64,000 bases of DNA, taken from Planctomycetota bacterium (GTDB lineage Bacteria > Planctomycetota > GCA-002687715 > DRQF01). The translations under genes were made by a program, and so were the position numbers. The DNA is taken from positions 304,150-368,149 of the forward strand of contig JAWKSY010000002.1 of the NCBI GenBank assembly GCA_041402125.1, written 5' to 3'. Below the pieces are notes generated by a model. It was not told the DNA's origin. It made no database searches and saw only the letters and a list, made by a program, of their open reading frames with translations. Numbering within the stretch: the stretch's first letter is position 1; every line of letters starts with the position of its first letter. Shown here piece by piece: positions 10,044 through 57,769 of this stretch.

Positions 10044-10078
10044 GGGGCGCCCCTCTGAGCGGGTCAGAGGGGCGCTCC
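10044..10078. other. stable hairpin next to DR2 (possible att-associated or regulatory element)
   Basis: ggggcgcccctctgagcgggtcagaggggcgctcc. The stem is 12 bp with a 5-nt loop, and no U-tract follows. Confidence 0.3.
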
Positions 10079-10427
10079 GCGGCGATCTTCCGCCTCCCGG
10101 CCCCCGGCGGGAGGGGGAGGGGACAGGGGTCCGGAAGGGCGTCCCCCGGCCCGAAAGCCGGGGCGGATTTCCCGCTGCCCTATCCTTCCAGGGCCGAAAA
10201 ACGTCTACACTGCCGGCGGACGGAACGTCCGAGCCGGGATCCTGCGGGATCGCGGCTGCGCTGATCGCCGAATCTGGCGATCGAGAAGGAAGGAAGGGCA
10301 ACCCGAGATTCCCTCTCGAGCCCCGGCATCGAGCGCAAACCTGGGGGGCCGGTCGGTCCGGCCTCAGGTTCGCTCCGGTTCCGGTTCGCGGTGCGTCCGC
10401 GGACGGGGCCTTTTGATCGTGAAAGAC

Positions 10428-10886
10428 ATGTCCGAAAAGAAGCTCTACGTAGGCAACATCACCTTCTCCACCACCGAAACCGATCTCGAGAACGCGTTCT
10501 CCGCGCACGGCCAGGTCGTGTCCGCGCGCGTCATCACCGATCGCGAAACCGGCCGCTCGCGCGGCTTCGGCTTCGTCGAGATGTCGACCCCTGAAGAGGC
10601 CCAGGCCGCGGTGGATGCCCTCGACGGCACCGACCTCGGCGGCCGCAACATCCGCGTGAACATCGCCGAGTCCCGCGATCGCGGCGGCGACCGTGGCGGC
10701 CGTGGCGGCGGCTACGGCGGTGGCGGTGGCGGCTACGGCGGCGGCGGTCGCGGCGGTGACCGCGGCGGCTACGGCGGCGGCGGTGGTGGCTACGGCGGCG
10801 GCCGCGGCGGCGATCGCGGCGGTGACCGCGGCGGCTACGGCGGCGGTCGTGGCGGAGACCGGGACCGCGGCGGCGACCGCTGGTGA
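10428..10886 (+). CDS. RRM-type RNA-binding protein with glycine-rich (RGG/YGG) C-terminal tail
   Basis: RNP-2 LYVGNI and RNP-1 RGFGFVEM. C-terminal tail of GGYGGGGRGGDRGG repeats. Long 5' leader. Confidence 0.85.
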   Translation: MSEKKLYVGNITFSTTETDLENAFSAHGQVVSARVITDRETGRSRGFGFVEMSTPEEAQAAVDALDGTDLGGRNIRVNIAESRDRGGDRGGRGGGYGGGGGGYGGGGRGGDRGGYGGGGGGYGGGRGGDRGGDRGGYGGGRGGDRDRGGDRW

Positions 10887-17161: not shown

Positions 17162-17180
17162 GGAACTCGGCGCGAGGCCG

Positions 17181-17972
17181 TCAGCGGCCCTCGAGGATCT
17201 CGCGGATGCGCGCGTCCTCGTCGGCGACGGGGGCGCTCGGCGCGACGAGATCCTCGAGCCCGACGAGCTCGCCGGGGGCGGCCGACGCGCCCTCGCGGAG
17301 CACGCCCTGCATGGCCGTGAAACGCTCGGTCGCCTTCGCGTCGAGGCGTCCGAGCCGCGCGACCTCGCGCTCGGTCGGGAGTGTCGCGAGCTGTCGCTCG
17401 CAGCGGTCGTCGAGATCCTCGAGGCGCGACACCGCGTCCTCCAGGCCCGCGAGCGCGCCGGTCACCGCCTCCCTCATCGTGCGCTCCGACCGCAGCTCGC
17501 GATCGAGGGCGACGAGCTGGCGCCGCAGGAAGTCCCGGTCGCGCGGGGTCTCCCGCCAGGTCGCGGGGTAGCCGCCGGCCTCCGCCGCGCGGTAGACCTC
17601 GCGCAGCTCGTCGAGCGCCGCCTCCCCGGCCGTGATCTTCCGTTCGGCCTCCTTCCGCCGGGCCTCGAGGCGGCCGCGCTCGGTGGCGAGCCGCGCCCGG
17701 CTCGCGGCGAGGGTCGCCCGGGTCTCGCCGGTCTTCCGCTCGACGTAGTCGAGGTAGCGAACGGGATCCTCGGCGATCGCGGCGGCGTTCCAGGATTCGA
17801 GCCGGTCGATCCCCTTCTCGACCTCGTGCGCGAAGCGCTCGCGCGCGACCCAGCTCACGACGGCGACGAGCGCGAACAGGATGACGATCACGAGGAGGAG
17901 GTTCGAGCCGCCGGCGTCACGGCGGCGCGACGGCGAGGCGGACGGACGGGGGCGAGGCGAGGTCCGGATCAT
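17181..17972 (-). CDS. membrane-anchored coiled-coil protein
   Basis: Start MIRTSPRPRP, then TM helix LLLVIVILFALVAVVSWV, then a long Arg/Glu/Ala/Leu coiled-coil region. The part of the track ORF upstream of MIRT is junk. Confidence 0.6.
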   Translation of the reverse strand: MIRTSPRPRPSASPSRRRDAGGSNLLLVIVILFALVAVVSWVARERFAHEVEKGIDRLESWNAAAIAEDPVRYLDYVERKTGETRATLAASRARLATERGRLEARRKEAERKITAGEAALDELREVYRAAEAGGYPATWRETPRDRDFLRRQLVALDRELRSERTMREAVTGALAGLEDAVSRLEDLDDRCERQLATLPTEREVARLGRLDAKATERFTAMQGVLREGASAAPGELVGLEDLVAPSAPVADEDARIREILEGR

Positions 17973-17989
17973 GGGGGGTGCGCTCCCGG

Positions 17990-19441
17990 TCAGGCCGTGA
18001 GGCCGCGGATCGGCTCCGCGCCCTCGACTCCGACGAGCTTCTGGTCCAGCCCGCCGTGGAAGAAGGAGAGTCGGTTCGGATCCACGCCGAGCTGACCGAG
18101 GATCGTCGCGTGGAGGTTCTTCACCTCGTAGGGATCGGTGACGGCGCGGTTGCCGAGCTCGTCGGTCTCCCCGACGGACACGCCGCCGCGGATGCCGCCG
18201 CCGGCGAGCCAGACCGTGAATCCGTAGGCGTTGTGGTCGCGCCCCGTTCCCTTCTCGTACTCGGCCGTCGGCTGGCGCCCGAACTCGCCGCCCCAGACGA
18301 TCAGGGTCTCGTCGAGGAGACCGCGGCGCTTCAGGTCGGTCAGGAGCCCCGCGATCGGGACGTCGGTCTCGCCGGCGTGCAGCTCGTGGTTGAAGACGAG
18401 GTCGTCGTGCGCGTCCCAGTTCGAATCGTTGTGGTGCCCGCCGGAGTAGATCTGCACGAAGCGGACGCCGCGCTCGACGAGGCGACGCGCGAGCAGGCAC
18501 TGACGCCCGAAGGTGCGCGTGCGCTCCTGGTCCATGCCGTAGAGGCGCCTCGTCTCGTCCGTCTCTGACGCGAGATCCACCGCCTCGGGCGCCGAGGACT
18601 GCATGCGGTAGGCGAGCTCGTAGCTCTCGATGCGGGACGCGAGCCGCGCGTCGCCTCCGCTTCGCTCGAGGTGCGCGCGGTTGAGGTCGCCGAGCGCGTC
18701 GAGGAATCGACGCTGGCGACCGCCGCGCAGGAGCTCGCCGGGAGCGAGGTCGAGGATCGGATCGCCCTGCGAGCGCATGACCGTCGCCTGGTAGCTCGCG
18801 GGCATGTAGCCGCTCGACCAGTTCTTCGGGCCGCTGATCGGGCCGCCGCGCGGATCGAGCATGACGACGAAACCGGGAAGATCGTCGTTCACCGAACCGA
18901 GCCCGTAGTTGACCCAGGAGCCGAGGCAGGGGCTGCCGGAGAGGATCTTCCCCGTGTTCATCTGCAGCATGGCCGACCCGTGGATCGGAGACTCCGCCGT
19001 CATCGAGTGGACGAAGGCCATGTCGTCGACGTGATCGCCGAGGCGCGGGAAGAGGTCGGAGACGAGCTTCCCGCAGCGGCCGCGGGGGCGAAACGCCCAG
19101 CGCGGCTCGACGATCCGGCCGACGTTCTTCTTCCCGCCGCGACCGAAGGTGTCGATCTTGATCGTCTGGTTGTCCCGACCCGTGAGCGCGGGCTTGTGGT
19201 CGAAGGTGTCGACGTGCGAGGGGCCGCCGTACATGTAGAGGAAGATGACCGCCTTCGCGCGCGCCGGTCGGTGCGGCGGCAGCGGATCACCGGGCATCGC
19301 GGCGCGCGCCGTCGCGCCGAAGAAGCCGTCTCCGTCGAGGAGCCCGGCCAGCGCGGTGCCGACGAAGCCGGTGCCCATCTGCCACAGGAACTCCCGCCGG
19401 CGGCGGTGGGGGAGGGGGTGGTCGTCGCGGGACGCGGTCAT
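17990..19441 (-). CDS. DUF1501 family protein (sulfatase-like, Tat signal)
   Basis: Twin-arginine motif RRREFLWQMGTGFVG. Conserved DUF1501 body. Lies 10 nt downstream of the DUF1553 gene. Confidence 0.85.
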   Translation of the reverse strand: MTASRDDHPLPHRRRREFLWQMGTGFVGTALAGLLDGDGFFGATARAAMPGDPLPPHRPARAKAVIFLYMYGGPSHVDTFDHKPALTGRDNQTIKIDTFGRGGKKNVGRIVEPRWAFRPRGRCGKLVSDLFPRLGDHVDDMAFVHSMTAESPIHGSAMLQMNTGKILSGSPCLGSWVNYGLGSVNDDLPGFVVMLDPRGGPISGPKNWSSGYMPASYQATVMRSQGDPILDLAPGELLRGGRQRRFLDALGDLNRAHLERSGGDARLASRIESYELAYRMQSSAPEAVDLASETDETRRLYGMDQERTRTFGRQCLLARRLVERGVRFVQIYSGGHHNDSNWDAHDDLVFNHELHAGETDVPIAGLLTDLKRRGLLDETLIVWGGEFGRQPTAEYEKGTGRDHNAYGFTVWLAGGGIRGGVSVGETDELGNRAVTDPYEVKNLHATILGQLGVDPNRLSFFHGGLDQKLVGVEGAEPIRGLTA

Positions 19442-19451
19442 CGGGTCGGTC

Positions 19452-22430
19452 TCAATCGAGGTAGATGAATTCGTTGAGGTTCATCGCGAGGAGCGCGAGG
19501 GCGCGGAGCGCCTCGTCGGGGCCGGCTTTGTCCGTCTCGCGGAAGGAGCGGAGGAAGGACGCGGCGCGCGCGACCTCCTCCTCGCGCGGTTCCCGGGAGA
19601 GCGCGCGACGGAGGACCCAGCGCGCGCGGCCCGAATCGTCGTCCGCCGCGTCGACGGCGAGGGCGGCGAAGGCCCGGGACTGCTCGTCGAGGAAGGTGCC
19701 GTTCATCAGCGACAGCGCCTGCGTCGGCTGCAGCGACTCGTAGCGCACGGGGCAGGTGAAGTCGGTGTCCGCCGCGTCGTGCGCGGCGAGGATCGGCAGC
19801 AGCAGCGAGCGCTTGACGTGGACGTAGACGCTCCGCCGATGGCGGTCCGGCGCCGGCGACACCGGCCAGCCGTCGCCGGGCTTCGACTGTCCCGCGAGCA
19901 CGGCGGCCGGGATCGGCGGGTGGACGCTCGGGCCGCCCGATCGGAGATCGAGGAGCCCGCTCGCGGCGAGGATCGAGTCGCGCAGCTCCTCCGCCGTCAG
20001 CCGGCGGCGCGGAAAGTGCGAGAGCCGCACCGCTCCGGGGTCGCGCGCGAGCGTCTCCGCCGTCGCCGCCGCGGCCTGTCGCCAGGTGCGGGAGGTGAGG
20101 ATGATCCGGTGCATGCGCTTCGCGCGCCAGCCGCCGCGGACGAACTCTGTCGCGAGCCAGTCGAGCAGCGCGGGATGGCTCGGACGGGCGCCCTGCAATC
20201 CGAAGTCGCTGCTCGTCTCCACGAGGCCGCGGCCGAAATGGTGCTGCCAGATCCGGTTGACGAAGACCCGCGCGGTGAGCGGATGGGCCGGGGCGACGAG
20301 CCAGCGCGCGAGCGCGAGGCGACGGCCGCTCGATCGTCCCCCGTCGCGCGGTCCGAGGTCCGGCGCGTCGCCGCCGCCGAGAACGACGGGGAAACCGGGG
20401 CGCACGCGGGCGCCCGGCGCGGCCGGGTTGCCGCGGGCGAGGATGCGCGTCGGAGGCGGCTCGGCGCCGACCTCCTTCACGACCAGCGCGCGGGCGAGGG
20501 CCTCCGGCGGCGCGGCGCGAAGCGACTCGGCCGCCGCGAAGTCCTCGCGGTAGGCGGCGAAGGCCGCGGCGTCGACGCGCGCCGGCACCTGCTTCTCGAT
20601 CAGCTCGAGGCGACGATTGCGGTGGCGGAACTCCTCGTGCTCGACGGGAGCGAAGCCCGGCTTCGCGAGCGCCTCGACCGCCGCCATCCGGGCCTCGATC
20701 GCCGCCAGGTCGGACCGCCAGCGCTCGTCGTCCGCCGCGTGGCGCGCGCGGGCGGCCGCGTCGGCGATCACCGCGATGCTCGCCTCCTCGACCGACTCGG
20801 GGCTGCGCTCCCCGTAGCGCTGAACGCCGCGGAAGAGGGCGAGCATCCGGTAGTAGTCGCGCTGGGGGATGGGATCGATCTTGTGGTCGTGGCAGCGCGC
20901 GCAGTTGACGGTGAGCCCGAGGAAGGTCTGGGCGGTCGTCGAGACGAGGTCGTCGAACTCGTCGAAGCGCGCGAGCTCGGCGTCGGCCGGCTCGTCGTCC
21001 CACTGACCGAGGCGGAAGTAGCCGGTGGCGATGCGCGAACCGGCGCTCGGCTCGTCGATCTCGTCGCCCGCGAGCTGCTCGGTGAGGAAGCGGTCGAAGG
21101 GCACGTCCTCGGCGAAGGCCCGGATGACCCAGTCGCGGTAGCGCCAGACGAAGGGCTTGCGGGCGTCGCGTTCGAAGCTGTTGGTCTCGGCGTAGCGGAC
21201 GAGGTCGAGCCAGTGGCGGCCCCACTTCTCGCCGTAGGCGAAGGAGGCGAGGTAGCGATCGACGAGCGCCGACCAGGCCTCGTCGCTCGGATCCGCCGCG
21301 AAGGCCGCGACCTCGCGCGGATCGGGCGGCAGGCCGGTGAGATCGAAGCTCAGCCGACGCACGAGCGCCGCGGGATCCGCCGGCGGCGAGAGCGCGAGTC
21401 CGTCCTCGCGGAGCGCCGAGAGGACGAAGGCGTCGACCGGATTGTCGGCGCCGGGCGTTGCCGGCGGATCGCGGTCGGCGACCGGCTGGAAGGCCCAGTG
21501 CGATCGGAGGGCCTCCTCGACCGAGGGGCCGCTGCGCGTGACGGTCGGCCGGGGCGACTCGAGTTCGGACGGGAAGACGGCTCCGCCCCGGATCCAGAGC
21601 TCGATCGCGGCGATCGACTCCGGGTCCAGCTTGCGGCCCGGCGGCATCTCGAGGCCCTCGTGACGCAGGGCGGGAAGGATGAGGCTCTCCTCCGGTCGCT
21701 CCGGATCGACGGCGGGGCCGGTCCGGCCGCCGGCCACGATGTCCTCGCGCCGGCCGAGGAAGAGATCGCCCTCGAGTTCGGACTCGGGCCCGTGGCAATC
21801 GAAGCACTCGCGGCGGAGGAGCGGCAGCACCGCCTCCTCGAAGTGGCGCCGGCGCTCGGCGGGACTCGTCTCCCGGGTCGGGTCGGGGAGCCGCACGAGG
21901 CGGACGTCGTCGAACCAGGCCGTCCCCGTGACCTGCCCCCAACCCCCGAGGGTGAGGTTGACGAGGATCTCGCGGCGGTCTCCGACCTCGAAGCGCGTCT
22001 CGAGGAGCGTCCAGTCCCGCGTGCCGGTCAGGCCCTCGCTGCGTCCGTCCTCCCCCAGCTCGTGCGGATTGACGAGCACGCCGTGACCGGCGCCGGCGAC
22101 GTTCTCGAGCCGGACCCGGGCCGAGAGCCGGTAGCGCGCGTGCGGCTCCACGGTCACGCGCTGACTGAAGCTGACGTCGGCTCCCGCGGACGAGGAGATC
22201 CGCGCCGCCCAGGTCCCGTCCGGGGCGTCCTCGTCGACGATCGTGAGGGAGGCCTCGCCGCTCCAGGTCGAGCGGCGCCAGTGGAGCGGATCGCCGGAGG
22301 GATCGCGCGCCTCGAAGGAACCGTTGCGGAGCCGGTTCTCGGGCGGCGACCCCTGGGCCGCGAGCGCGCCGCAGAGGCCGAGGAGGACGAGCGCGAACCG
22401 CGCGAGACGCGGGAGCGACGGGGCTGGCAT
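19452..22430 (-). CDS. PSCyt1/DUF1549/DUF1553 domain protein (Planctomycete-type cytochrome-c-like)
   Basis: Start [26 protein letters not shown], then [10 protein letters not shown] (PSCyt), [16 protein letters not shown] (DUF1549) and [18 protein letters not shown] (DUF1553). The upstream 247 codons of the track ORF are Ser/Arg-rich junk. Confidence 0.85.
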
Positions 22431-22629
22431 CGACGACCTCGGAAAGCGATCGGGCGGGCGGAGGCGGGGTCGCGGGACCGCGCCGACGTTCTCGGTGCAG
22501 CATGATCGATGGGGGCCCCGCTCGTAAAGAGCCGGCCGATCGCCCGGGCGGCCGCCTGGACAGCGCGGACCCTTCGGCGAAGATGATGCGGCCGATCCGG
22601 CATCCGACCGCGGTCTCGGAGATCCGACC

Positions 22630-24357
22630 ATGCAGCGCTCCGTCCTCCTTCTCGCCTCGCTCCTCGTCCTCGCCGCGATCGCGGCGTCCCAGGGCCTCCG
22701 CGTCGTCGACCCCGATGCGGCGGGTGAGGTCTCGGCGCGCGAGGCCGTCGAGGCCTTCCTCGCCGACCGCGCCCTTCTCGGGCGACGGCACCTCGACGCA
22801 CTGTCGCCGGCCGGCCGCGAGGCGCGTCGCGAGCGCTGGCGTGCCGCGCTCGGCGGATCCGAGGCCGTGCCCTTCGAGGCGCTGTCGGCGACGGCGCGGA
22901 TCGATCGCATCCTCCTCGAGAACCGGCTGCGCCGTGAGCTCGAGGAGCTCGATCGCGAGGAGTCCCGGGAGGCCGAGGTCGCGGATCTCGTCGGGGCGGT
23001 GGCGCCCATCGTCGCGCTCGAGGAGGCCCGGCGCCGCTTCGAGTTCGCGCCGGCGAAGGAGATCGCGGCGACCTTCGCCGAGGTCGCCCGCGCGCTGGTC
23101 GAGTCGCGACGGGCGCTCGACGCGGGGGAGTTCGACCGCTTCGACGCGGTGCGCGCGCGCCGCGCGGCCAACGGGCTCCGGCGCGTCGCGTCCTACCTGC
23201 GCGACTTCCGTCGCTTCCGCGACGGCTACGATCCCGAGTTCGGCTGGTGGACGAAGGAGCCGGCGGGGAAGCTCGAGTCCGAGCTGCGCGGCTACTTCGA
23301 GGCGATCGAGTCGCGACTCGTCGCGGCCCGCTCCGGAGGCGACGCGACGCTCGTGGGTGAGCCGATCGGGGTGGAGGCCCTCCGGAGCGAGCTGGCGTTC
23401 GAGTACATCCCCTACGAGCCGAAGCGGCTGATCGCGCTGGCCGAGCGCGAGTTCGCCTGGTGCGACGCCGAGATGGCGAAGGCGGCGGCCGAGCTCGGCT
23501 TCGAGGACTGGCGCGAGGCCCAGGCGCACGTGAAGTCGCTCGCCGTCCCGCCGGGGAAGCAGCCCGAGCTCATCCGGGACCTCGCGAACGAGGCCGTCGC
23601 CTTCCTCGAGGCCCGCGATCTCATCACGATCCCGCCGCTCGCGAAGGAGGGCTGGCGGATGACGATGCTCTCCCCGGCCGCGCAGCGCGTGAGTCCCTAC
23701 TTCCTCGGCGGCGAGGTCATCCAGGTCGCGTACCCGACGGATGCCATGAGCCACGAGGAGAAGCTCATGGCGATGCGCAGCAACAACCCGCACTTCTCGC
23801 GGGCGACCGTCCAGCACGAGCTGATCCCGGGACATCACCTGCAGGGCTACATGGAGGAGCGGCACCGTCCCTACCGGCGGGCCTTCGCGACGCCCTTCTG
23901 GATCGAGGGCTGGGCCCTCTACTGGGAGATGCGACTCTGGGATCTCGACTTCCCGCGCGGCCCCGAGGATCGCATCGGGATGCTCTTCTGGCGGAAGCAC
24001 CGCTGCGCCCGGATCATCTTCTCGCTCGGATTCCACTCGGGGACGATGACGCCGAGGGAGTGCGTGGACTTCCTCGTCGATCGCGTCGGGCACGAGCGCT
24101 CCGCGGCCGAGGCGGAGGTGCGACGCTCGATCGGCGGCGACTACTCGCCGCTCTACCAGGCCGCGTACATGCTGGGCGGCCTGCAGATCCGCGCTCTCCG
24201 TCGCGAGACGGTCGAGGAGCGGGGCGCGAACGAGCGCCGCTTCCACGACGAGATCCTGCGCAACAACGCGATGCCGATCGAGTTCGTGCGCGCGCAGCTC
24301 GCCGGCACGCCGCTCGAGCGCGGTCACCGCGCGAGCTGGCGCTTCGACGGGCGCTGA
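22630..24357 (+). CDS. DUF885 family protein, secreted
   Basis: Signal peptide. HELIPGHHLQGY motif and overall DUF885 architecture. Confidence 0.75.
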   Translation: MQRSVLLLASLLVLAAIAASQGLRVVDPDAAGEVSAREAVEAFLADRALLGRRHLDALSPAGREARRERWRAALGGSEAVPFEALSATARIDRILLENRLRRELEELDREESREAEVADLVGAVAPIVALEEARRRFEFAPAKEIAATFAEVARALVESRRALDAGEFDRFDAVRARRAANGLRRVASYLRDFRRFRDGYDPEFGWWTKEPAGKLESELRGYFEAIESRLVAARSGGDATLVGEPIGVEALRSELAFEYIPYEPKRLIALAEREFAWCDAEMAKAAAELGFEDWREAQAHVKSLAVPPGKQPELIRDLANEAVAFLEARDLITIPPLAKEGWRMTMLSPAAQRVSPYFLGGEVIQVAYPTDAMSHEEKLMAMRSNNPHFSRATVQHELIPGHHLQGYMEERHRPYRRAFATPFWIEGWALYWEMRLWDLDFPRGPEDRIGMLFWRKHRCARIIFSLGFHSGTMTPRECVDFLVDRVGHERSAAEAEVRRSIGGDYSPLYQAAYMLGGLQIRALRRETVEERGANERRFHDEILRNNAMPIEFVRAQLAGTPLERGHRASWRFDGR

Positions 24358-33544: not shown

Positions 33545-34876
33545 ATGAAGATGTCGATCCCCTCTCCTTTCCTGCGCGTCCTCGTGCTGCTCCTCGTCGT
33601 CGCGCCGGCGGTCCTCGCGCAGCGGGACGACTCGGCCGAAGCGCGCTTCGAGCGGGGCAAGAAGGCCTTCGACCGGATGGAGGTCGAGGGCGCCCGGGAG
33701 GAACTCGAGGCCGCGCTGGCGGTCACCGAGGGCCCGCTCGCGGCGCCCCGGAAGCTCGAGGCCGAACGTCTCCTCGGCCTGATCGCCCAGTACGCGCAGC
33801 GCACGGCGGACGCCGTCACGTGGAACACCCGCGCCCTCGCGACCCTCACCGGAATCGAGGGCGTGAAGTCACCGGCGCTCGTGCCGCTGCTCGTGGAGCT
33901 CGCCCGCTCGCTCAAGGACGACGGCCAGCTTCCCGAGTCGCTGGCCCCGCTCGAACGAGCCCTCGTCCTCCTCGCGCCGGCGGCCGAGACCGAGGGCGAG
34001 CGGATCGCGGCGATCCGCTTCGACCTCGCGCGCTCGGCCAAGCTCGCCGGTCGTCGGGAGCTCGCGCTCGACAACTTCCTCCTCTACCTCGCGGCCCGGG
34101 AGAAGGCGCTCGGTCCGGACTCGGGCGACCTCGCCTACCCGCTCGAACAGATCGCGGCCCTCCAGATCGGCCTCGGACGCAAGAAGGACGCCCTCGCGAC
34201 CTGGGAGCGCTGGATGGCCCTCTTCGAGAAGCTCAAGGGACCGAAGAGCCCGGCCCTCTGCCGCGGTCTCGACGCCACGAGTCGGCTCCGGATCGCGCTG
34301 GGTGACGCCGACGGCGCCGAGAAGGACGTCCAGCGCTGGCTGTCCCTCCTCCTGAAGGTCACCGTCGAGCACCCCGAGATCGCGACCGCCGAGCACCGCT
34401 TCTCGATGCTCGAGGACGCGCGCGGCAATCACGAGGAGGCGCTCCGTCACCTCGACGCGGCGCTCCTGCAGACTCGCAAGATCCGCGGGCCGGGGGCGCT
34501 CGCCTTCGGGAAGTTCCAGCTCGATCGGGCCGACCTGCTCCGGCGCATGAAGCGGCTCGACGAGGCGCTCGCCGCGGCCGAGACCGGCTGCGCGATCCTG
34601 GTGAAGAAGCGCGCGGGAGACGACGTGGAAGTCGTCCTCGGCTTCCTCGAACGGGGCCGGGTCCACCTCGATCGCGAGGAATGGGATCTGGCGGCCGCCG
34701 ACTTCCGCCGCGTCACCGGGTCCTGGGAGCGGATCGGAGGTCCGAAGCATCCCGCGCTCGCCGAGCCGCTCGGCTTCCTCGCCACCGCCCTCGAGAAGAA
34801 GGGCGGGGAGGAGGCGGCGAAGGAGGCGGCCGCGCTGCGCGGGCGCGTGAAGGAGATCGAGGCCGCCGCGCGCTGA
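33545..34876 (+). CDS. TPR-repeat protein, secreted
   Basis: MKMSIPSPFLRVLVLLLVVAPAVLAQ signal peptide. Helical TPR-like repeats. Its last about 30 nt form the first unit boundary of the downstream tandem array. Confidence 0.75.
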   Translation: MKMSIPSPFLRVLVLLLVVAPAVLAQRDDSAEARFERGKKAFDRMEVEGAREELEAALAVTEGPLAAPRKLEAERLLGLIAQYAQRTADAVTWNTRALATLTGIEGVKSPALVPLLVELARSLKDDGQLPESLAPLERALVLLAPAAETEGERIAAIRFDLARSAKLAGRRELALDNFLLYLAAREKALGPDSGDLAYPLEQIAALQIGLGRKKDALATWERWMALFEKLKGPKSPALCRGLDATSRLRIALGDADGAEKDVQRWLSLLLKVTVEHPEIATAEHRFSMLEDARGNHEEALRHLDAALLQTRKIRGPGALAFGKFQLDRADLLRRMKRLDEALAAAETGCAILVKKRAGDDVEVVLGFLERGRVHLDREEWDLAAADFRRVTGSWERIGGPKHPALAEPLGFLATALEKKGGEEAAKEAAALRGRVKEIEAAAR

Positions 34877-35700
34877 TCCCGGCGGAGCCGGGGTGCCGGC
34901 ACGGCGCCCCTCACCGGGTGAGCCTTTTGGGCGAGCCGGTTTCGAATGCGGGCGCGGTGGAACGGAGATGCGAGTACGGTGCCAGTCACCGGATGAGCAT
35001 TTCCGGGCGAGTCGGCTTCGCATGCGGATGCGGTGGAACGGAAATGCTCATCCGGTGACTGGCACCGTACTCGCATCGGGAGTCCGGCAGCGCGCGCGCA
35101 TCGGTGGGGCGAATCGGTCTCATGGACGGGCGGCGAGGATGCGCTCGACCGGTGCGAAGGAGATCGAGGCCGCCGCGCGTTGATCCGGCAGAGCCGGGGG
35201 TGCCGGCACAGGTGCCCTCACCGGGTGAGCCTTTCGGGCGAGCCGGTTTCGTATGCGGGCGCGGATAGAGCGGAGATGCGAGTACGGTGCCAGTCACCGG
35301 ATGAGCATTCCGGGCGAGTCGGCTACGCGTGCGGGCGCGGTGGAACGGAAATGCTCATCGGTGACTGGCACCGTACCCGCATCGGGAGTCCGGCACCGCG
35401 CCGGTGGGGCGAATCGGTCTCATGGACGGGCGAGGATGCGCGCTCCCGACCGATTTGCGTGAAAGGAGATCGAAGCCGCGGCGCGCTGATCCGTCCGGAT
35501 CAGGGTGCCGGCGACCGCCCCTCACCGGGTGAGCCTTTCGGGCGAGCCGGTTTCGTATGCGGGCGCGGTGGAATGCAGATGCTGTACGGTGCCAGTCACC
35601 GGATGAGCATTCCGGGCGAGTCAGTTTCGCATGCGGACGCGGTGGAACGGAAATGCTCATCAGGCGGCTGGCACCATGCCTCTCGGGCGACTCAGACGGC
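34847..35700. repeat. tandem array of about 2.8 units (period about 307 bp) of a structured repeat with a 34-bp perfect inverted repeat
   Basis: Unit boundaries (the gene-tail copy aggagatcgaRgccgcSgcgcgYtgatcc) sit at about 34847, 35152 and 35457. The hairpin arms gatgcgagtacggtgccagtcaccggatgagcat and their reverse complement lie at 34967-35000 and 35044-35077 in unit 1. Units 2 and 3 are progressively degenerate, and unit 3 is truncated. Confidence 0.85.
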
Positions 35701-35713
35701 CGCCGAGAAAGAG

Positions 35714-35749
35714 AAAGGGGTCGGACCTCGGTGAGGTCCGACCCCTTTC
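35714..35749. terminator. bidirectional intrinsic terminator
   Basis: aaaggggtcggacc-tcggtga-ggtccgacccctttc. On the minus strand it is followed by a UUUCUCUUUCUC tract just after the stop of the di-heme peroxidase gene. Confidence 0.6.
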
Positions 35750-35773
35750 ACGTGCGCGCGAGGGCGCGTCGGA

Positions 35774-37192
35774 TCAGTTGTTGACGTCCTTGTCCGCCGG
35801 TCCGAGATCCTCGCTGGGGTTCTTCGGCGTCCGCAGCGAGCGGAGCAGCGCGAGGACCTTCAGCTTCTGGCTGTCGGGCAGGTTGGCGAAGTTGTCACGC
35901 GCGGTCTGGGCCTCGCCGCCGTGCGCGAGGATCGCGTCGCTGATGGTCAGCGCGCGGCCGTCGTGCAGGTAGGGGGCGGTGTCCGCGACGCCCCAGAGGC
36001 GCATCGTCGTGAACTCGGCGTCGAGCGGCGAACCGAAGGACTCGGTGAGGCCCGGGCCCATGTCGTGACGCTTGAGGTCGGCGAAGCAGTTCACCGCGAC
36101 GCCGGCGCCCGGCACGTTCTGGAAGCGCATCGGGTTCGACTTCAGGTTCACGCTCATGTAGACGTTGGCCGACGGGTCGGTCGGGTCGTCGGGGAACGAG
36201 AAGGTGTGCGTGTTCGAGTCGGTCGTCAGGACCGGCTTGTGGCACTCGGCGCAGCCGATCGAGGCGAAGATCTGGAGGCCCTGGGCCGCGCCCCACTTGG
36301 GCTTGAACTGCGGCTTCGGCTGCATGTTGGCGAAGACGTGGAGGACCGACATCTCGCCGATCATGAGCTCGTCGGTGACGCCGTCGTTGTCGCCGTCGAC
36401 GCCGCTGCCGACGACCTCTTCCGGCTCCATGCCGAAGTGGAACTGCATCGCGCCGCGGTCGAAGTCGCGGGTCGTGTGGTTCTCACCCTTGCGACCGAAG
36501 GGACGGACGACGAGATCCTCGTCGACGCCCTCGACGCCGCTGTAGTCGAAGTCGGTGCCGTCGTAGCTGATGTGGCCGAAGCTGACACTGTGCGTGAGCA
36601 GCGAGACGACGGTCCCCGGGTTGGCGAAGGCCTGGGCCTTGGCGGCGAGCAGGTCGGTCGTCATCTCCTTGCCGAGGGCCTCGATGCCGCCCGCGCCGAA
36701 GAGGAAGGGCGGGTTGATCAGGCGTCCGTTGTAGTTCGCGAAGCCGTTGTTGTCGCTGTCGTCGACGTCGATCTCGGTCGCCATGAACAGCGCGCTGTTC
36801 GCGATGCCGGCGACGCCGCCGATGCCCAGCTCGGCGGGAATCGACGAGTTGCTGACGACGCCGTGGCACTCCTGGCAGGTCTGGGCGTCGAGGCCGTTGA
36901 CGCGCAGGAAGGTGCCGTTGTTCTGGAGCGACGGGCGGTTCGGGAAGCTCGTGTGGTCGGGGTTGTTGACGTCGTAATTGACGCCGTAGCCGTCGAGCTT
37001 GTTGAAGGGCGTCGTGAAGATGCGCCGACCCTCGCGGCGGATCTGGTGGACGTTCATGCCACCGCCGGTGACGTCGGCCTGCGTGATGCGGTTGCCGAGG
37101 TTCGGGTCGTGGCCGACCTGAGCCGACACGACGCCGGCGAGAAAGAGCGACATGAGCACGGGGAGTGCCGCACTTGATGCGCGGAACGTCAT
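35774..37192 (-). CDS. di-heme cytochrome c peroxidase-like oxidoreductase (DUF1111 family)
   Basis: Signal peptide. Two CXXCH motifs, CQECH and CAECH. Length and spacing are typical of DUF1111 thiol oxidoreductase/peroxidase. Confidence 0.8.
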   Translation of the reverse strand: MTFRASSAALPVLMSLFLAGVVSAQVGHDPNLGNRITQADVTGGGMNVHQIRREGRRIFTTPFNKLDGYGVNYDVNNPDHTSFPNRPSLQNNGTFLRVNGLDAQTCQECHGVVSNSSIPAELGIGGVAGIANSALFMATEIDVDDSDNNGFANYNGRLINPPFLFGAGGIEALGKEMTTDLLAAKAQAFANPGTVVSLLTHSVSFGHISYDGTDFDYSGVEGVDEDLVVRPFGRKGENHTTRDFDRGAMQFHFGMEPEEVVGSGVDGDNDGVTDELMIGEMSVLHVFANMQPKPQFKPKWGAAQGLQIFASIGCAECHKPVLTTDSNTHTFSFPDDPTDPSANVYMSVNLKSNPMRFQNVPGAGVAVNCFADLKRHDMGPGLTESFGSPLDAEFTTMRLWGVADTAPYLHDGRALTISDAILAHGGEAQTARDNFANLPDSQKLKVLALLRSLRTPKNPSEDLGPADKDVNN

Positions 37193-50472: not shown

Positions 50473-53219
50473 TCAGGGCGCGCGGAGTTCGACCCCGTGT
50501 GAAGATGCGAAGAAGCCGTTCGCGGCCGTGGGTGTGAGCGCGAGCACCTGCGTCATGATGCTGATGCCGACGAAGCCCGGCGGCACGAGGAAGGCGTGCT
50601 GGCTGCCGCCCGGCGGCAGCGGCACCGAGGGGCCGCCGAAGGGGCCCGGCTGGCTGCCGTCGAAGATGACGAAGGGCGCCGGCGATCCGCCGGGGCTCAC
50701 CGCGGCGCCGAAGGCCGGAACGCCGGCCGGCGGGAAGCCGGGGGTGAAGTACTGCCCGAGGAGGACGAGCGGCGTGCCGTCGAAGGTGCCCATCGGCGAG
50801 TCGATCAGGATCTCCACGATGTCGCCGGCCGCGACCGGGACGATGTCGCAGGCCGCGGGCGGAACGCCATTGATCCGGAACTCCCAGCGGAAGTCCTCCT
50901 GCGTGCCGGGATGGAGCGGCCCCTGGAGCATCGTGAAGGTCCCGGCGCCGCCGTTCACGAAGCGGAGCACCTCGCCCGTCGTCGCCTCGCAGCAGGAGAG
51001 ATCGAGGTCTCCGTCCGCGTCCGCGTCGGCGTAGGCGATCTCGCGGGGAACGTAGCCGCCCGGCAGCGTGATCGACTGCAGGATGAAGGGCGTGCCGTCG
51101 ACGTCGTCGTAGACGCGGAGCACGAAGGAGGACTGTCCCGCGACGCGGCGCAGGACGATCGCCTCGTCGGGATCGGCGTCCGGCACGAGGTCGCGGAGGC
51201 TCTGCGCGTAGAGCGGCGGGGACGTGCCGGTGATCCGCGTGAAGACGAGATCGCGGTCCGCGGCCGAGACGACGCGGGCGCCGGAGGTCCAGCCCGAGTA
51301 GATCGCGATCGGATCCGTCGCCTCGAGCACGAGCTGGTAGCGGTGCTGCTTCGCCGGACCGGTGGGCTGCGAGGCGAGACCGGAGGAGTAGACGAGCTGA
51401 GGCGGGTTGCCGACGAGATCGAGGCGATCGATCGCGCCGTCGCCGTCCTCGTCGCCGAGGGTCGAGCCCAGCCAGCGGCCGAGGGCGGGGGCGAAGAAGA
51501 CCTCGCCGGTCGCGCCGAAGAGCGAGTTCAGGAAGGCGTGCGTGCCGATCGCGGCGTTCTGCGGCGAGGGCGGCGTCCAGTTGACGAAGGTCGGCAGGCC
51601 GTAGCCGAAGGAGGAGATCGAGGATCCTCCCTGCGTGGTGTTCCCCGCGGATCCCGGCAGCATCAGGTTGAGGAAGTCGAACTCGAAGCCGTGCGCGACG
51701 ACGAAGCCGCTGCGGCGATCCATGCGGTCGAGACCGGGCGTCGGATGGCCGCCGAAGAGCCGCCCCGAGAAGTCCGTCAGCGGCGAGGCGGGACTGCCCC
51801 CGTCGTCGGGTTCGGCCCGACGAGGACGATCCGCGTCGCCTGGTTGGCGCCCGCGTCGGCCACGATCGGCTGCGAGGAGAAGACGAAACCGATGTCCGCC
51901 GTCCCGACCGACGTCACGTGATTGAGGTGCACGAAGCCCTGCGCGTCGGTGAACTTCACGTGCGAGAAGAGCGCGAGCGGCGCGGCGGCGGGGAGTCCGT
52001 CGACGCCGAGCTCGAGGGCGAAGACGGCGCCGCTCGCGCGGTCGTGGAGGAGCAGTCCCCGGTCGGTCCCCGCGTTCGTGAGCGCCGGCGGGAGCGTGGG
52101 GTGGAGGCTGACGCCGTGCAGGCCCGGATCGGAGAAGGCGCCGGGGAGCGTGACGTCGGTTGCGGCGGGCGCGGCCTCGGGGAGGCCGTCGCCGTCGGTG
52201 TCGCGCCAGAAACGCAGGTGATGGGCGCCGGCGTCGAAGTAGGCGCTGATCGCGACGGTCTCGTCGAGGTCGTTGAGGAAGACGGTGGTCTGCGTGAGGA
52301 GACCCGGCGCCGGGACGACGAGGTCGCGGACGACGAGACCGGAGACGTCCGTCATCGTGCTCTTCGCGCGCGTGGCCGCGTCCGTGGCGGCGGCGTCGTC
52401 GAGACCGCTCTGGGCGCCCGATCCGTAGTAGCTCGAGGTCCACGCGGGATCGCCGAGGGCGAGCGTGCGACGGAGCGCGCGTCCCTTGCGCCGCCGGGCG
52501 AGCGCCTCCGCGAGCGCCGCGATGTCGCCCGGCGCGTCGGCCACGCCGCCCGAACCGAGGAAGGCCGTCAGGCCGACGATCGCGTCGCCGTCGGCGTCCA
52601 TCGCCGCGAAGCTCGCGTGCGGCGTCCCGCCGGGCGCCCTCAGGGCCGCGAGGAAGCCGTCGAGGACGAGCAGGCCGAGTCCGTCGGCGTCCCGCGCCGC
52701 GTCGCACTGCGAGGCGGCGCCGAGGAGCGGGATCTGGAAGACGTGCGTGACCTCGGTCGCGAGAGCGGCGGCGAGGGTGAGGCCCCAGTACGCGGCGGGA
52801 AGTCCCGCGCTGCCCGTGCTCGCGCGGTCGAGGAGTCGGGACGCGACGACGATCGTGTCGGCATCCTGACCCTGGGCGAGGTAGGTCCGCGTGCGAGCGC
52901 GGATCGAGTCGACGCGGATCTTGCCGTTGTCGACCATGCGCGGGAGGTGGCCGAGGAGCTCTCCCACCGTGAAGGGTTCGCCGAACTGCGCGTCGTATTG
53001 CGCCTGCGAGGGACCGGTGCCGAAGTAGGCGGGCAGGGTCGCGCTCCGCACCGGACCGACGGCGCGCTTGGCGAGCACGGCCGCGCCGCGGACGAGGTCG
53101 CGTTCCGTCGGCGCGAGCGCCGACTGGGGCACCGCCTGGGCGAGGAGTCCGCCGGACGAGAGAGCGAGCGAAGCGAGGACGAGGACGGCGAGGGCCGTCC
53201 GGGGGGGCGCAACGATCAT
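50473..53219 (-). CDS. large secreted protein (about 915 aa) with VCBS/FG-GAP-like segment; apparent frameshift in a G5 run near 51796-51800
   Basis: Track ORF 51777-53219 is the signal peptide and N-terminal half. Track ORF 50473-52707 is protein-like from about 51790 downward. The two junction frames give ...IVLVGPNPTTG and ...SPASPLTDFSGRLFGG... across ggggg. Confidence 0.6.
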
Positions 53220-55662: not shown

Positions 55663-55839
55663 TCAGTCCGCGCGCGCGGCGTCCTCGCGCGCCTGCGCCC
55701 GGCTCTTCAACTCCGCCTCCTTGCGCAGCAGCGACACGATCAGCGTCGCCGCCATCGCCAGCGCGAAGAAGATCCCGACCGAGAAGAACAGGATCTGGGG
55801 ATCGATCCCGAAGGGCCCCGCCGACAGGAAGCTCGTCAA
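55663..55839 (-). CDS. hypothetical small single-TM protein, TTG start overlapping the upstream stop
   Basis: The TTG at 55839-55837 overlaps the TGA of the cytochrome gene (TTGA). Product is 58 aa with one TM helix, ILFFSVGIFFALAMAATLIVSLL. Confidence 0.3.
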   Translation of the reverse strand: MTSFLSAGPFGIDPQILFFSVGIFFALAMAATLIVSLLRKEAELKSRAQAREDAARAD

Positions 55840-57557
55840 CGCGCGTCGTTCCGGCCGACGTCGCCCTTCGAGGCGATCCACTCGGACAGCATCCGGATGC
55901 CTTCCTCATCGGGCACCGTGCTGAGGAGGCTCGGCATGCGGTCCCAGCCCACGGACCCCATCCGCTGGATGAAGCGCGAGTGGCGCGGGCGGCCGGGGAC
56001 GGCCACGCCGCGACGCAGCTCGTGCGACTTCGAGGCGAAGATGCCGGTGTCCTCGAAGGGCGTGTCCAGGCGGAGGTCCATGGTGCCGCTGCCCGGCCCG
56101 CCGGGCTGGTGGCAGGACGCGCAGTGGACGTGGAGGTAGCTGCGGGCGCGCGCCTCGAGCGGCGCCGAGGCGTCGCGCGGATCCGCGAGGGCGGGGAGGG
56201 CGGCGACGTCGGCGGGGAGGCCCTGGAGGTGGCCCAGCTTCGCCATCGCCTGGAGCTGGTTCGGCGCGTCGGCCTCGCGGCGGGCGCGGTTGAGCTGCGC
56301 CGTCGTGACGCCGAGGATGCGACCGGTGGCCTCGTTGTGGCACTTCGTGCAGTCGCGCTCGCGCGCGATGTTCCAGAGCTGCGACTCCTGGCCGTGGTTG
56401 GCGTAGAACTCGTCGCCGTTGCGCACGAGGCGGGCGTCGGTGCCCTCGTCGTTCCACACGTAGACGCCGAAGCTGAGGTCGTCGCCGTCCTTGCGGATCA
56501 CGCGCGTCTCGACGACGAGGTCATCCTCGTCGGCGTCGGAGAAGCGGAGCGTCTGGAGGAAGGTCGTGCCGCGCGGGAAGATCCAGCCGCCGTCCTCGCG
56601 GTAGCGGATCGCCTCGCCCTTCGGGAGCCGGAGGAAGCGATCCTTGATCGCGCCGTCCGACCACAGCCCGGAGTTGACCTCGTAGGAGATGAAATCCGCC
56701 GCCATCTCGCGCTTCGCGAGGTCGCGGAAGAAGCCGGTCTCGGAGAGCATCGGCGGGAAGGCGACGGTCGCGCCCTTCTTCGGCGCGGTGGCCACGGCGA
56801 AGAGGATCTCGCCGGCCGCGGCGCGGAGGTCGCGCGCCTCGCGGACGCGCGCCGCGAGCGCCTCGGCCTCGTCGAGGGTCGGGCAGGCATCGAGCGTCTG
56901 GAAGAGGAGGTTGCGGCCGCCCGAGCTGCAACCCGGGGCGCGCACCTGCTCGGCGAGCTCGAGGGCGCGCTTCGCGTCGATCGTCCGGTCGTCACGGTCG
57001 CGCGCCGCGGCGAGCACGACGGCGGCCGCCGCGTCGAGGTCGTCGGCCTCGCGCACGCGGGCGGCGAGCGCTTCCGCGTCACCGAGTTCCGCCACGGCGG
57101 CGAGCTCCTGGAAGAGCAGATTGCGGCCGCCGCTGCTGCATCCCGGGGCGCGGACGCGGCGCGCGAGCTCGCGCGCGGTCTCGGCGTCGAGGACGGGGGC
57201 GGCCGGGCGGGCGCGGTCGGCGAGCAGCTTCGCCGCGGCCTCTTCGTCGTCCGCCTCGCGCAGGAGCGCGACGAGCGCCTCGGCCTCGTCGAGGTCGGCG
57301 AGTCCCGGCACCGAGTTGAAGACGTCCGTCCGCGCCATCGTCGCGCAGGGCGCGCGCCGCGCCTTCTTCGCGATGGCGAGGAAGTCGGTCCCGGACTCGC
57401 AGCTCTCTCCGCACGCGCCGGCCGTACCGCAGGCACCCTTCGTCTCGCCGGTGGCCGTGCCGCCGCCGCACTGGGCGGAAAGCGGGAGGGCGAGGACGGC
57501 GATCAAGGCGGCGCCGCCGAGCGAGCGGCGGAGGACGTCGAGGGAGCGCGGGTTCAT
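55836..57557 (-). CDS. c-type cytochrome domain protein (2 CXXCH) with internal tandem repeats
   Basis: Start MNPRSLDVLRRSLGGAALIAVLALPLSAQ with an AGGAG RBS. CTKCH and CASCH motifs. About 2.5 tandem repeats of about 57 aa, each ending RVRAPGCSSGGRNLLFQ. Confidence 0.75.
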   Translation of the reverse strand: MNPRSLDVLRRSLGGAALIAVLALPLSAQCGGGTATGETKGACGTAGACGESCESGTDFLAIAKKARRAPCATMARTDVFNSVPGLADLDEAEALVALLREADDEEAAAKLLADRARPAAPVLDAETARELARRVRAPGCSSGGRNLLFQELAAVAELGDAEALAARVREADDLDAAAAVVLAAARDRDDRTIDAKRALELAEQVRAPGCSSGGRNLLFQTLDACPTLDEAEALAARVREARDLRAAAGEILFAVATAPKKGATVAFPPMLSETGFFRDLAKREMAADFISYEVNSGLWSDGAIKDRFLRLPKGEAIRYREDGGWIFPRGTTFLQTLRFSDADEDDLVVETRVIRKDGDDLSFGVYVWNDEGTDARLVRNGDEFYANHGQESQLWNIARERDCTKCHNEATGRILGVTTAQLNRARREADAPNQLQAMAKLGHLQGLPADVAALPALADPRDASAPLEARARSYLHVHCASCHQPGGPGSGTMDLRLDTPFEDTGIFASKSHELRRGVAVPGRPRHSRFIQRMGSVGWDRMPSLLSTVPDEEGIRMLSEWIASKGDVGRNDAR

Positions 57558-57769
57558 GGCGGAACTCCTGGCGAGCGGACGGGATCCAGGCGGCAAGCCT
57601 ACCAGACGTAGGACCCGGACGGCAGTTTCCATCCTGTCTCCCCACCGGGCGGACCGCGGTCCCCGGTGCCGCCGCGAGGATCGGCGAGAGAGGGCGTCGG
57701 GGAGGGGAAGCCGCGACGCTTCCGGTATAGGATCTCGGCCAACGGATTCGCGTCGGCGGGGAGTGCGAG

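Follow-up and report, generated by a model that had tools for sequence, protein, structure and literature searches.

Two convergent genes at this locus are separated by 897 bp, and the questions raised by this spacer are what fills it, how it grew and whether its contents have a function. We addressed them within a 64-kb window, meaning the whole 64,000-nt stretch of planctomycete DNA that was analysed. On the plus strand lies a gene for a TPR-repeat protein (33545-34876; 443 aa; Pfam TPR_12; 100% identical to NCBI MEZ6194699.1) with a signal-peptide-like segment at its N-terminus. It is followed on the minus strand by a di-haem oxidoreductase (DHOR) gene (35774-37192; Pfam PF06537; 100% identical to MEZ6194700.1), which provided the synteny anchor. 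The convergent DHOR/TPR pair is conserved in four relatives, whose spacers measure 129 bp (L034/L035), 87 bp (L036), 236 bp (L068/L069) and 65 bp (L070/L071). Each of these spacers holds a lone terminator hairpin, equivalent to a 17-bp hairpin with a T-run found here at 35713-35749. A terminator scan called this hairpin on the minus strand only, as the terminator of the DHOR gene. It had been described as a bidirectional terminator; the hairpin is indeed present, but the plus-strand call is not, and because the plus-strand T-run falls inside the stem, bidirectionality is an assumption. The hairpin is presumed to stop TPR transcripts as well.

A nested tandem repeat fills the spacer

The sequence between the TPR stop codon (34876) and the terminator hairpin is filled by a non-coding nested tandem repeat of ~840 bases, comprising ~2.75 units of ~306 bp and extending from 34844 to ~35700. 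Reading the junctions in an alignment places unit 1 at 34844-35155 (with 34849 also taken as its start), its first ~33 nt being the real end of the gene. Unit 2 (35156-35461) aligns to unit 1 with 90% identity over the shared core, and unit 3 (35462-35700) is truncated, diverges past the right arm of its hairpin and runs up to the terminator. Pairwise identity between units is 87-90% over 223 shared columns, in agreement with a preliminary description of three tandem copies, the third cut short. The divergence of 10-13% consists of many substitutions together with unit-specific indels, and a ~78-nt tail is present in units 1 and 2 and absent from unit 3. We compared these tails with the terminator as possible degenerate copies of it and found no similarity (p 0.24 and 0.5). 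With head-to-tail, divergent non-coding units at a single locus and a truncated last copy, the array has the features of an intergenic tandem repeat of the VNTR or minisatellite type.

Autocorrelation of the sequence shows maxima for shifts of 307 and 76, of which TRF reported the 76-nt period and not the 307-nt one. Besides copying the gene tail, every unit includes a 76-nt sub-repeat present twice and a 33-nt quasi-palindrome present as two inverted copies. In unit 1, core A (GGGCGAGCCGGTTTCGAATGCGGGCGCGGTGGAACGGA) occupies 34929-34966, with equivalents at 35236-35274 and 35540-35577; core B (35005-35042, with equivalents at 35312-35349 and 35614-35651) forms the hairpin loop and is a diverged copy of core A, so that the spacer of the hairpin is, as had been noted, a relative of the sub-repeat beside it. 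The core pattern occurs six times in the array, against 0.02 occurrences expected by chance in the window, at intervals of 76, 231, 76, 228 and 74 nt, and the intervening sequences are themselves repeated. A further diverged copy of the 3′ end of the core plus the quasi-palindrome, hp0, lies at 34879-34927 and contains the palindrome CTCACCGGGTGAG (local alignment score 31, z 6.2, p 0.0005 versus shuffles), which means that the sub-repeat array begins 3 nt past the stop codon. A higher-order structure in which 307 equals four times 76 was not adopted: the first two copies (A and B) are clear, the third (C) marginal (z up to 3.7) and the fourth (D) not significant. A CRISPR array was likewise rejected, given the irregular core spacing, the repetition of the would-be spacers and the lack of any cas gene in the window.

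Each unit re-creates the end of the TPR gene

The units start with AAGGAGATCGARGCCGCSGCGCGYTGA, which translates as KEIEAAAR* and corresponds to the last 8 codons of the gene plus its TGA. This sequence occurs at the real gene end (34850-34876) and in two non-genic copies, in unit 2 (35157-35183; one synonymous difference) and unit 3 (35463-35489; two synonymous differences, with an in-frame TGA preceding it), bearing out the earlier observation that every unit re-creates the gene terminus. All three substitutions in the extra copies (C>T, G>A and C>G) are synonymous, with an estimated chance of ~0.01. TPR orthologues in the syntenic loci have a common R-x-x-x-IE C-terminus, which indicates that the tail belonged to the gene ancestrally and was copied from it into the repeat, and not the reverse. 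A derivation of the sub-repeat itself from the 3′ end of the gene gave a suggestive pairwise score (p 0.004) but is unsupported, the gene tail lying outside the top 25 profile matches in the array-masked window.

Beyond the gene end, the array has no coding signature. Third-position GC bias breaks off with the TPR stop codon and returns in the following gene, with no codon-position bias in any frame across 34877-35773, and NCBI calls no CDS between the two flanking genes, whose accessions are consecutive. The expectation that no credible ORF would be found therefore held, and we rejected a coding array or small ORFs on the lack of this bias and on the in-frame stop ahead of the unit 3 tail copy. 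Searches with a spurious 233-aa ORF of the array found no relative, either in 5.8 billion clustered proteins or in 1.84 billion representative ones. Nor does the array match a known RNA family, again as anticipated: no Rfam covariance model reached its gathering score in the window, and at E up to 10 the matches were generic long-hairpin miRNA models scoring below half their thresholds. ARAGORN found no tRNA-like element, and no sigma-70-like promoter was found inside the array. We infer that the TPR mRNA probably includes the array as a structured 3′ UTR of ~840 nt; the three stable hairpins that had been predicted for such a transcript are a reasonable expectation, the third being already weak.

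The stop-proximal hairpin is the only perfect one

In unit 1, an inverted-repeat search detected a left arm at 34967-35005 whose exact reverse complement (39 nt, 100%) forms the right arm at 35039-35077, giving a perfect 39-bp stem with a 33-nt loop in a 111-nt module that starts 91 nt past the stop codon. A perfect stem of 34-38 bp with a loop of ~40 nt had been proposed for every unit; the long hairpin is real, but its dimensions differ and its perfection is confined to unit 1. The module of unit 2 (35275-35383; arms 35275-35312 and 35346-35383) is interrupted by two 1-nt bulges and a single A.C mismatch. In unit 3 (35577-35686) ~27 bp still pair, the outer ~11 bp having been lost and three inner positions having changed to one U.G wobble and two mismatches. 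Predicted folding energies for units 1, 2 and 3 are -93.9, -78.3 and -53.0 kcal/mol. In the window this exact 39-bp inverted repeat stands apart: the other listed inverted repeats within 300 nt and outside the array reach at most 37 nt and 91% complementarity. Within the arm, segment 34968-35000 is a 33-nt quasi-palindrome, self-complementary at 22 of 33 positions (p 0.025 versus shuffled arms), with internal stems of 4 and 5 bp plus two isolated pairs, weaker than classical REP stems.

Across the three units, 31 of the 39 stem pairs are invariant and none covaries, and five are broken in unit 2 or 3 without compensation. Unit 1 carries two arm changes of its own, where ~3.8 would be expected at the non-arm rate (an estimate), and both restore pairing. 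That this hairpin is perfect despite ~10% divergence between units, with both private changes restoring pairs, hints at selection or directed correction over pure neutrality. Outside the arms, one pair in the apical loop stem is compensatory (A-U to G-C, with an A.C intermediate in unit 3), and the pairing predicted between the gene tail and core A is strengthened in unit 3, where a G-U has become an A-U. One whole unit folds at -196.9 kcal/mol (z -8.5), and its minus strand folds equally well (z -9.5).

The array is absent from the relatives' spacers and from the collections searched

Similarity to the repeat unit was found in none of the syntenic spacers of the four relatives, and the array is thus a lineage-specific addition. 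Elsewhere in the window, over the remaining 63 kb, no further copy was found by a pattern allowing 3 mismatches, by blastn with word size 7 or by an nhmmer profile. Scans of two core patterns against 185,579 species genomes, JGI metagenomes and IMG/VR gave chance matches only. The core pattern had 32 genome matches, 30 metagenome matches and one viral match, all single and confined to the ~30-nt pattern, and we attribute them to chance on that ground. A pattern joining the palindrome to the core had 0 matches in metagenomes and viral contigs, and plasmid and phage collections contained no match to the array element. A Pfam scan of ~50 ORFs in the window found no transposase, RAYT, integrase, reverse transcriptase or cas gene, and no partition, replication-initiator or regulator gene near the array.

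Nested duplication in place is the favoured origin

We lean towards the explanation that the array is lineage-specific non-coding DNA, built in place by nested duplication and carried passively as a structured 3′ UTR. A ~76-nt module, consisting of the 33-nt quasi-palindrome and a ~40-nt core, would have been duplicated head to tail, producing hp0-coreA-hp1-coreB and possibly a degenerate third copy. The next quasi-palindrome would then have been turned into the exact inverse of hp1, most likely by template switching between quasi-palindromes, yielding the REPIN-like 111-nt hairpin. Two duplications of the whole ~306-nt block, by replication slippage or unequal recombination, would have followed, with a left breakpoint ~33 nt inside the gene; such a breakpoint gives every unit the last 8 codons and the TGA and leaves the gene intact at any copy number. 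The units would later have diverged by 10-13%, units 2 and 3 becoming decaying passengers. We infer these mechanisms, as well as any effect of the array at the RNA level. By analogy with REP and BIME stem-loops, the first hairpin could act as a barrier to 3′-to-5′ exonucleases or as an RNase III site. The duplication model does not account for where the first 76-nt module came from.

The anatomy of the hairpin invites another reading, possible but unlikely in our judgement, in which this Planctomycetota lineage has a new tag-less REPIN or small MITE family, moved in trans by a RAYT or another transposase encoded elsewhere in the genome, and the array is one of its tandemly reiterated clusters. 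Segment 34968-35000 is a short imperfect palindrome such as REPs have; its two inverted copies and short spacer make a REPIN-like doublet (39-nt arms, 33-nt spacer, 111-nt hairpin), and the perfect 39-bp arms bound the module as MITE terminal inverted repeats would. Absence from the relatives' syntenic spacer is as expected for an insertion, a few-unit cluster of more than 700 bp reiterated with flanking DNA fits described REPIN (PMC3116915) and REP (PMC3733652) clusters, and REPs have been reported in Planctomycetes (PMC3733652). The signatures of mobility looked for here are nevertheless missing. The flanks of the hairpin (...AACGGA before the left arm, within GGAACGGA, and GGGAGT... after the right arm, within GGGAGTCC) contain no common 2-10-nt direct repeat that could be a target-site duplication. 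The REP tag GTAG is absent from the array (CTAC occurs once), and CGTC and GACG together number 5 against ~10 expected from base composition, with CGTC at 35492 (~4 expected) and GACG at 35125, 35425, 35636 and 35695 (~6 expected), none abutting a palindrome. The internal stems of the quasi-palindrome are weaker than those of typical REPs, the window encodes no Y1 or other transposase, and the core patterns found chance matches alone. REP families at the densities seen in Pseudomonas or E. coli would place several copies in 63 kb, but none lies outside 34877-35712, even by profile HMM, and the plasmid, phage, genome, metagenome and viral searches likewise supplied neither the multiple copies nor the parent IS of a MITE. 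Thus, amplification of a palindromic element in tandem with the gene terminus, as originally suggested, is supported, and the MITE- or REP-like mobility suggested with it is not, there being no copies, target-site duplication, tag or transposase in the window.

We regard as distinctly unlikely a role under selection for the unit, or at least for its first hairpin, whether as a cis-acting RNA element or as a small RNA derived from the 3′ UTR of the TPR transcript. It might then stabilise the mRNA, be a target for RNase III processing or work as a decoy, and the additional units would be recent spare copies. The very strong folding, the perfection of the stop-proximal hairpin alone with its two pair-restoring changes, the compensatory pair in the loop stem and the strengthened tail-core A pairing in unit 3 argue for such an element. 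Against it, the predominantly invariant stem pairs include none that covary, no homologue exists in the relatives or the databases searched and hence no evolutionary conservation, Rfam has no match, the array has no promoter-like site, and the equal folding of the minus strand is expected of a DNA palindrome and not of an RNA-specific fold. Perfect 39-bp Watson-Crick stems free of G-U pairs and bulges are, moreover, commoner in recent DNA events than in functional RNAs. The conserved structured ncRNA suggested at the outset accordingly found no support, with no Rfam family, no covariation and uncompensated erosion of the stem in units 2 and 3. An assembly artefact, either a repeat expansion or concatenated strain variants, is very unlikely: the source is a metagenome-assembled genome and several differences between units are 1-nt homopolymer indels (TTT/TT, CC/C) that could be long-read errors, but units 10-13% apart are individually resolvable where artefactual expansion would give near-identical copies, the ~78-nt tail of units 1 and 2 that unit 3 lacks is unlike concatenated haplotypes of one locus, and the contig spans 420 kb with synteny conserved on both sides.

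We consider it extremely improbable that the array is a set of DNA-level protein-binding sites of the centromere-like or iteron-like kind. Nine putative palindromic sites of the TCAYCCGGTGA type and six GCGGTGGAA cores do lie within ~800 bp, a dense reiteration of short palindromes and direct repeats, and a similar layout is seen in the tandem repeats with inverted repeats that follow partition genes on plasmids (sopC of plasmid F, for example). However, there is no partition, replication-initiator or regulator gene nearby, the spacing is irregular (76/231), the array marks no switch in GC skew and relatives lack the element. A replication origin or terminus was rejected on the same skew profile, which tracks gene orientation. 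Diversity-generating retroelements (DGRs) and retrons were rejected because the window has no reverse transcriptase, the copied stretch is only ~33 nt and the differences are not adenine-specific, and integrons because their defining genes are absent from the window.

A bolder proposal also strikes us as improbable, namely that the stop-proximal hairpin is under selection and the 76-nt module is the first example seen of a new Planctomycetota-specific family, made up either of mobile REPIN-like elements that lack tags or of a 3′-UTR RNA device. If it were true, selection or template-switch correction would actively maintain the palindrome in perfect form as the spare copies decayed, and further copies would occur in the rest of the genome.

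Resemblance to known intergenic repeats

Mycobacterial MIRUs are tandem repeats in post-gene spacers that are oriented with transcription, overlap the upstream stop codon and regenerate the gene end; their units measure 46-101 bp, are found at numerous loci in a genome and may include small ORFs. The present array is similarly a spacer tandem repeat that overlaps a stop codon, likely of slippage or unequal-recombination origin, but its ~306-bp unit is internally nested, forms hairpins and is known from one locus only. With MITEs it shares a non-coding 111-nt module with 39-bp terminal inverted repeats that is missing at the same site in relatives, and it differs in that no target-site duplication, second copy, matching IS or transposase, or plasmid or phage match was found.

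The closest analogue is, we suggest, a tandemly reiterated REPIN/BIME cluster, a likeness that need not mean membership of the REP class. In P. fluorescens SBW25, REPIN clusters are tandem doublets "including the flanking sequences", with few units and the largest exceeding 700 bp (PMC3116915). The two have in common an inverted doublet of imperfect palindromes, a hairpin of ~110 nt with a short spacer, an extragenic position and a small number of tandem units. The SBW25 REPINs, in contrast, are dispersed in hundreds of copies and linked to a RAYT, whereas the array occupies one locus in 64 kb, with neither a RAYT in sight nor relatives; the units of the SBW25 clusters hardly differ from one another, unlike the 10-13% diverged units here, and the array extends into coding sequence and adds a direct 76-nt sub-repeat to each unit. 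The REP and BIME clusters of enterobacteria and the GTAG/CGTC-tagged REP superfamilies, for which a role in mRNA stabilisation or termination has been proposed, resemble it in their alternating palindromic units, conserved linker motifs and placement at gene 3′ ends or between convergent genes (PMC3733652). They differ from the array, which lacks a GTAG or CGTC tag and has longer (39 nt) and perfect arms, a weak internal palindrome and no other copy in the window. Local reiteration together with flanks is a known process in REPIN and REP clusters (PMC3116915, PMC3733652).

As it stands the array matters little. It is non-coding, private to a single uncultured genome and not conserved in a way that would argue for function. 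Should further copies and a cognate transposase exist in the genome assembly, it would add a tag-less REPIN-like family in Planctomycetota, and one perfect hairpin beside two decaying ones would offer a within-locus contrast on the upkeep of palindromes. The array is an example of a spacer that has grown about four- to fourteen-fold (from 65-236 bp to 897 bp) by nested duplication around quasi-palindromes, and it illustrates that, when a tandem duplication has its start within a gene, every unit comes to carry a regenerated gene end.

Organization of the array

The entire stretch from the stop codon of the tetratricopeptide repeat (TPR)-protein gene (33545–34876, plus strand, 443 aa) to a 17-bp terminator hairpin is occupied by a nested tandem repeat. 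Three units follow one another head to tail, at about 34844–35155 (unit 1), 35156–35461 (unit 2) and 35462 to about 35700 (unit 3), with pairwise identities of 90%, 89% and 87% over the 223 columns common to all three. Every unit starts with AAGGAGATCGARGCCGCSGCGCGYTGA, which reads KEIEAAAR*; the copy at 34850–34876 is the genuine end of the TPR gene, and the other two lie at 35157–35183 and 35463–35489. These coordinates bear out the preliminary description, which had reported tandem units that each open with the gene end; its observation is real and well described, save for the claim that the hairpin is perfect in every unit.

The identity autocorrelation of the array peaks at shifts of 307 and 76, and 76 nt is the sole period given by TRF. 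Each unit contains two clear direct sub-repeats of 76 nt, A and B, in each of which a 33-nt quasi-palindrome precedes a ~38-nt core, GGGCGAGYCGGYTTCGNATGCGGNNGCGGTGGAACGGA. The array holds six cores, where chance alone would predict 0.02. An additional diverged copy of the core end plus quasi-palindrome is found at 34879–34927 (score 31, z 6.2, p 0.0005), and the sub-repeat array therefore starts 3 nt past the TGA.

Hairpin decay and possible maintenance

In unit 1, the quasi-palindromes on either side of core B are exact reverse complements of each other, giving a 39-bp perfect stem (34967–35005/35039–35077) with a 33-nt loop. The arm is itself self-complementary at 22 of 33 positions (p 0.025). 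The perfect stem previously ascribed to all copies is confined to unit 1: unit 2 carries an A·C mismatch and two 1-nt bulges, and in unit 3 the outer ~11 bp of the stem are gone and three further positions are non-Watson–Crick, one of them a U·G wobble. Predicted hairpin energies accordingly run from −93.9 through −78.3 to −53.0 kcal/mol in units 1, 2 and 3. When the three units are compared, the 39 stem pairs comprise 31 that are invariant, three that become G·U and five that are broken; none has changed on both sides. This uncompensated loss of pairing shows that units 2 and 3 are free of structural constraint. Both strands of the array fold far better than shuffled sequences (z −8.5 and −9.5), as a DNA palindrome does, which gives no pointer to one transcribed strand.

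The arms of unit 1 show only two lineage-specific changes in 78 positions, a T insertion at 35000, which is derived as polarized by the A sub-repeats, and a T at 35071; both restore pairing. Outside the arms, unit 1 has 7 changes in about 145 nt. By our own post hoc estimates, about 3.8 arm changes would be expected at that rate, and the probability of zero disruptive arm change is ~0.02. Either selection on the hairpin nearest the stop codon or palindrome 'correction' would fit this pattern. One compensatory pair, A–U to G–C, occurs in a 5-bp stem inside the hairpin loop. In the dead gene-tail copies, all three substitutions are synonymous (chance about 0.01, by our own estimate). One possibility is that the live gene acquired and fixed them between one duplication and the next; the three-copy tree is unrooted and cannot polarize them.

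Coding potential and transcription

The array is neither a gene nor a known RNA. Third-position GC, ~0.9 within the TPR gene, drops at its stop to match codon positions one and two and rises again at 35774, where the next gene begins, and the flanking proteins have consecutive accessions in the NCBI annotation of the source MAG (MEZ6194699.1 and MEZ6194700.1). A long spurious ORF spanning the array has no relatives in two protein libraries. Rfam at gathering thresholds gave no match in the entire window and, once these were relaxed, nothing beyond generic long-hairpin miRNA models; ARAGORN found nothing. Codon-position GC and Rfam thus agree with the earlier judgment that no credible ORF or known RNA family is present. 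The suggestion of a structured non-coding RNA finds no support, given the lack of an Rfam match and the uncompensated decay of units 2 and 3.

We found no promoter-like sites inside the array, and a terminator lies beyond it; therefore, the array is probably transcribed with the TPR mRNA, of which it would form a long structured 3′ UTR. By analogy with proposals for REP/BIME elements, its RNA could block exonucleases or serve as a site for RNase III. The hairpin previously called a bidirectional terminator is present at 35713–35749, and the terminator scan calls it on the minus strand only.

Comparison with known repeat systems

Among known systems, the array most closely matches a tandemly repeated REPIN cluster found in Pseudomonas fluorescens, with which it shares the doublet-hairpin architecture and the cluster form. 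It differs in having no dispersed copies in 64 kb and no GTAG/CGTC tag, and no RAYT was found among about 50 window ORFs scanned, nor any transposase, integrase, reverse transcriptase or Cas protein. Further copies in the window were sought by a pattern with three mismatches, blastn at word size 7 and profile HMMs of the sub-repeat and the whole unit, all without a match. The core pattern matched 32 genome loci, 30 metagenome loci and 1 viral locus, but these outside loci belong to unrelated taxa, and each shows one match that does not extend beyond the ~30-nt pattern; we therefore regard them as chance matches. The palindrome joined to the core had no match in metagenomes or viral contigs, and blastn against plasmid and phage collections returned none.

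A MITE is rejected on target-site duplication and on copy number in the 64-kb window, and CRISPR, DGR and retron are ruled out by absent defining genes and wrong patterns. The mobile MITE- or REP-like reading proposed earlier is thus left unsupported by the missing dispersed copies, tag and target-site duplication. We place the array, as a new member private to this locus, among the intergenic tandem or palindromic repeat clusters, a broad kind that is already known; it may work like a REPIN/BIME cluster, which does not establish that it is one.

Locus context and proposed origin

The window belongs to a 420-kb contig from a Planctomycetota MAG with about 72% GC. The TPR gene converges on a gene for a di-haem oxidoreductase (DHOR; 35774–37192, minus strand), and the array lies in the spacer that separates the two; Omp85 and TamB genes follow. 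DHOR proteins of the nearest genomes share only 74% amino-acid identity with that of the window. The convergent pair is kept in four relatives, with spacers of 129 bp (L034/L035, where Omp85 and TamB also precede DHOR), 87 bp (L036), 236 bp (L068/L069) and 65 bp (L070/L071), against 897 bp here; each of the four holds one terminator hairpin and nothing else, and shows no similarity to the repeat unit. Hence, the array was added specifically in the lineage of the window. In L067, a fifth relative, the TPR gene is missing.

TPR orthologues (43% and 31% identity) share an R-x-x-x-IE C-terminal motif. Hence, the tail in each unit derives from ancestral coding sequence that the duplication took up, rather than the gene owing its end to element sequence. 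The spacer of L034 (7457–7554, minus strand; JGI Ga0675945_000132) encodes EIEGVEAAAR in frame, 27 nt past the TPR stop, and its DNA aligns with the last ~40 nt of the TPR gene of the window (score 29 versus 18.2 ± 3.2 for shuffles, p 0.012). This stretch, which lies about 78 nt downstream of where the live gene has the corresponding IE codons, looks like what is left of an ancestral C-terminus.

Nested in-place duplication of DNA is most likely, as the simplest account of the array. A ~76-nt module would have been duplicated, and one quasi-palindrome then turned into the exact inverse of the adjoining one; template switching between quasi-palindromes is a known route of mutation. The resulting ~306-nt block would have been duplicated twice, with a left breakpoint about 33 nt within the TPR gene, in line with the earlier view that the gene terminus, found in each unit, was amplified with it. 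Because tandem duplication keeps the first copy joined to the gene, the gene is intact and each later unit starts with a dead tail copy. The 10–13% divergence among units shows that the array is old and not homogenized.

Other features of the locus and window

In L067 (286–2265; GCA_020427805.1, JAGQOA010000100.1), a 348-aa RVT_1 reverse-transcriptase gene and about 930 bp of non-coding DNA lie immediately upstream of DHOR, in a retron-like or defence-RT-like layout with no similarity to the array. L036 (3471–5137; GCA_020639295.1, JACKGY010000010.1) has HTH_17 and phage-integrase genes upstream of DHOR, versus Omp85/TamB in the window and L034; in this clade, the region 5′ of DHOR appears prone to insertion. 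In L070 (3001–6246; ENA ERZ27262647 k141_492995), two tandem copies of DHOR (476 and 497 aa) precede the convergent TPR gene.

Elsewhere in the window, ~1.6 kb at 8776–10412 has a GC content of 0.63 versus about 0.72, upstream of an RRM_1-domain protein gene (10413–10886). It contains no ORF with third-position GC bias and no Rfam match, and may be a long leader or an uncharacterized non-coding region. Towards its 3′ end (10675–10880), the RRM-protein gene contains GC-rich tandem repeats (periods 12, 21, 33 and 66 nt) that probably encode a low-complexity repetitive C-terminal tail. In three more regions, of 0.7–0.9 kb (17162–17989, 51035–51776 and 63123–64000), no ORF shows convincing codon-position GC bias. 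A 210-bp-period tandem repeat (56813–57190; 1.8 copies, 77% matches) lies within a minus-strand gene (55836–57632) with a weak cytochrome c match. The DUF1501/PSCyt1-PSCyt2-PSD1 gene pair at 17990–23171 is typical of Planctomycetota and consistent with the phylum assignment of the MAG.
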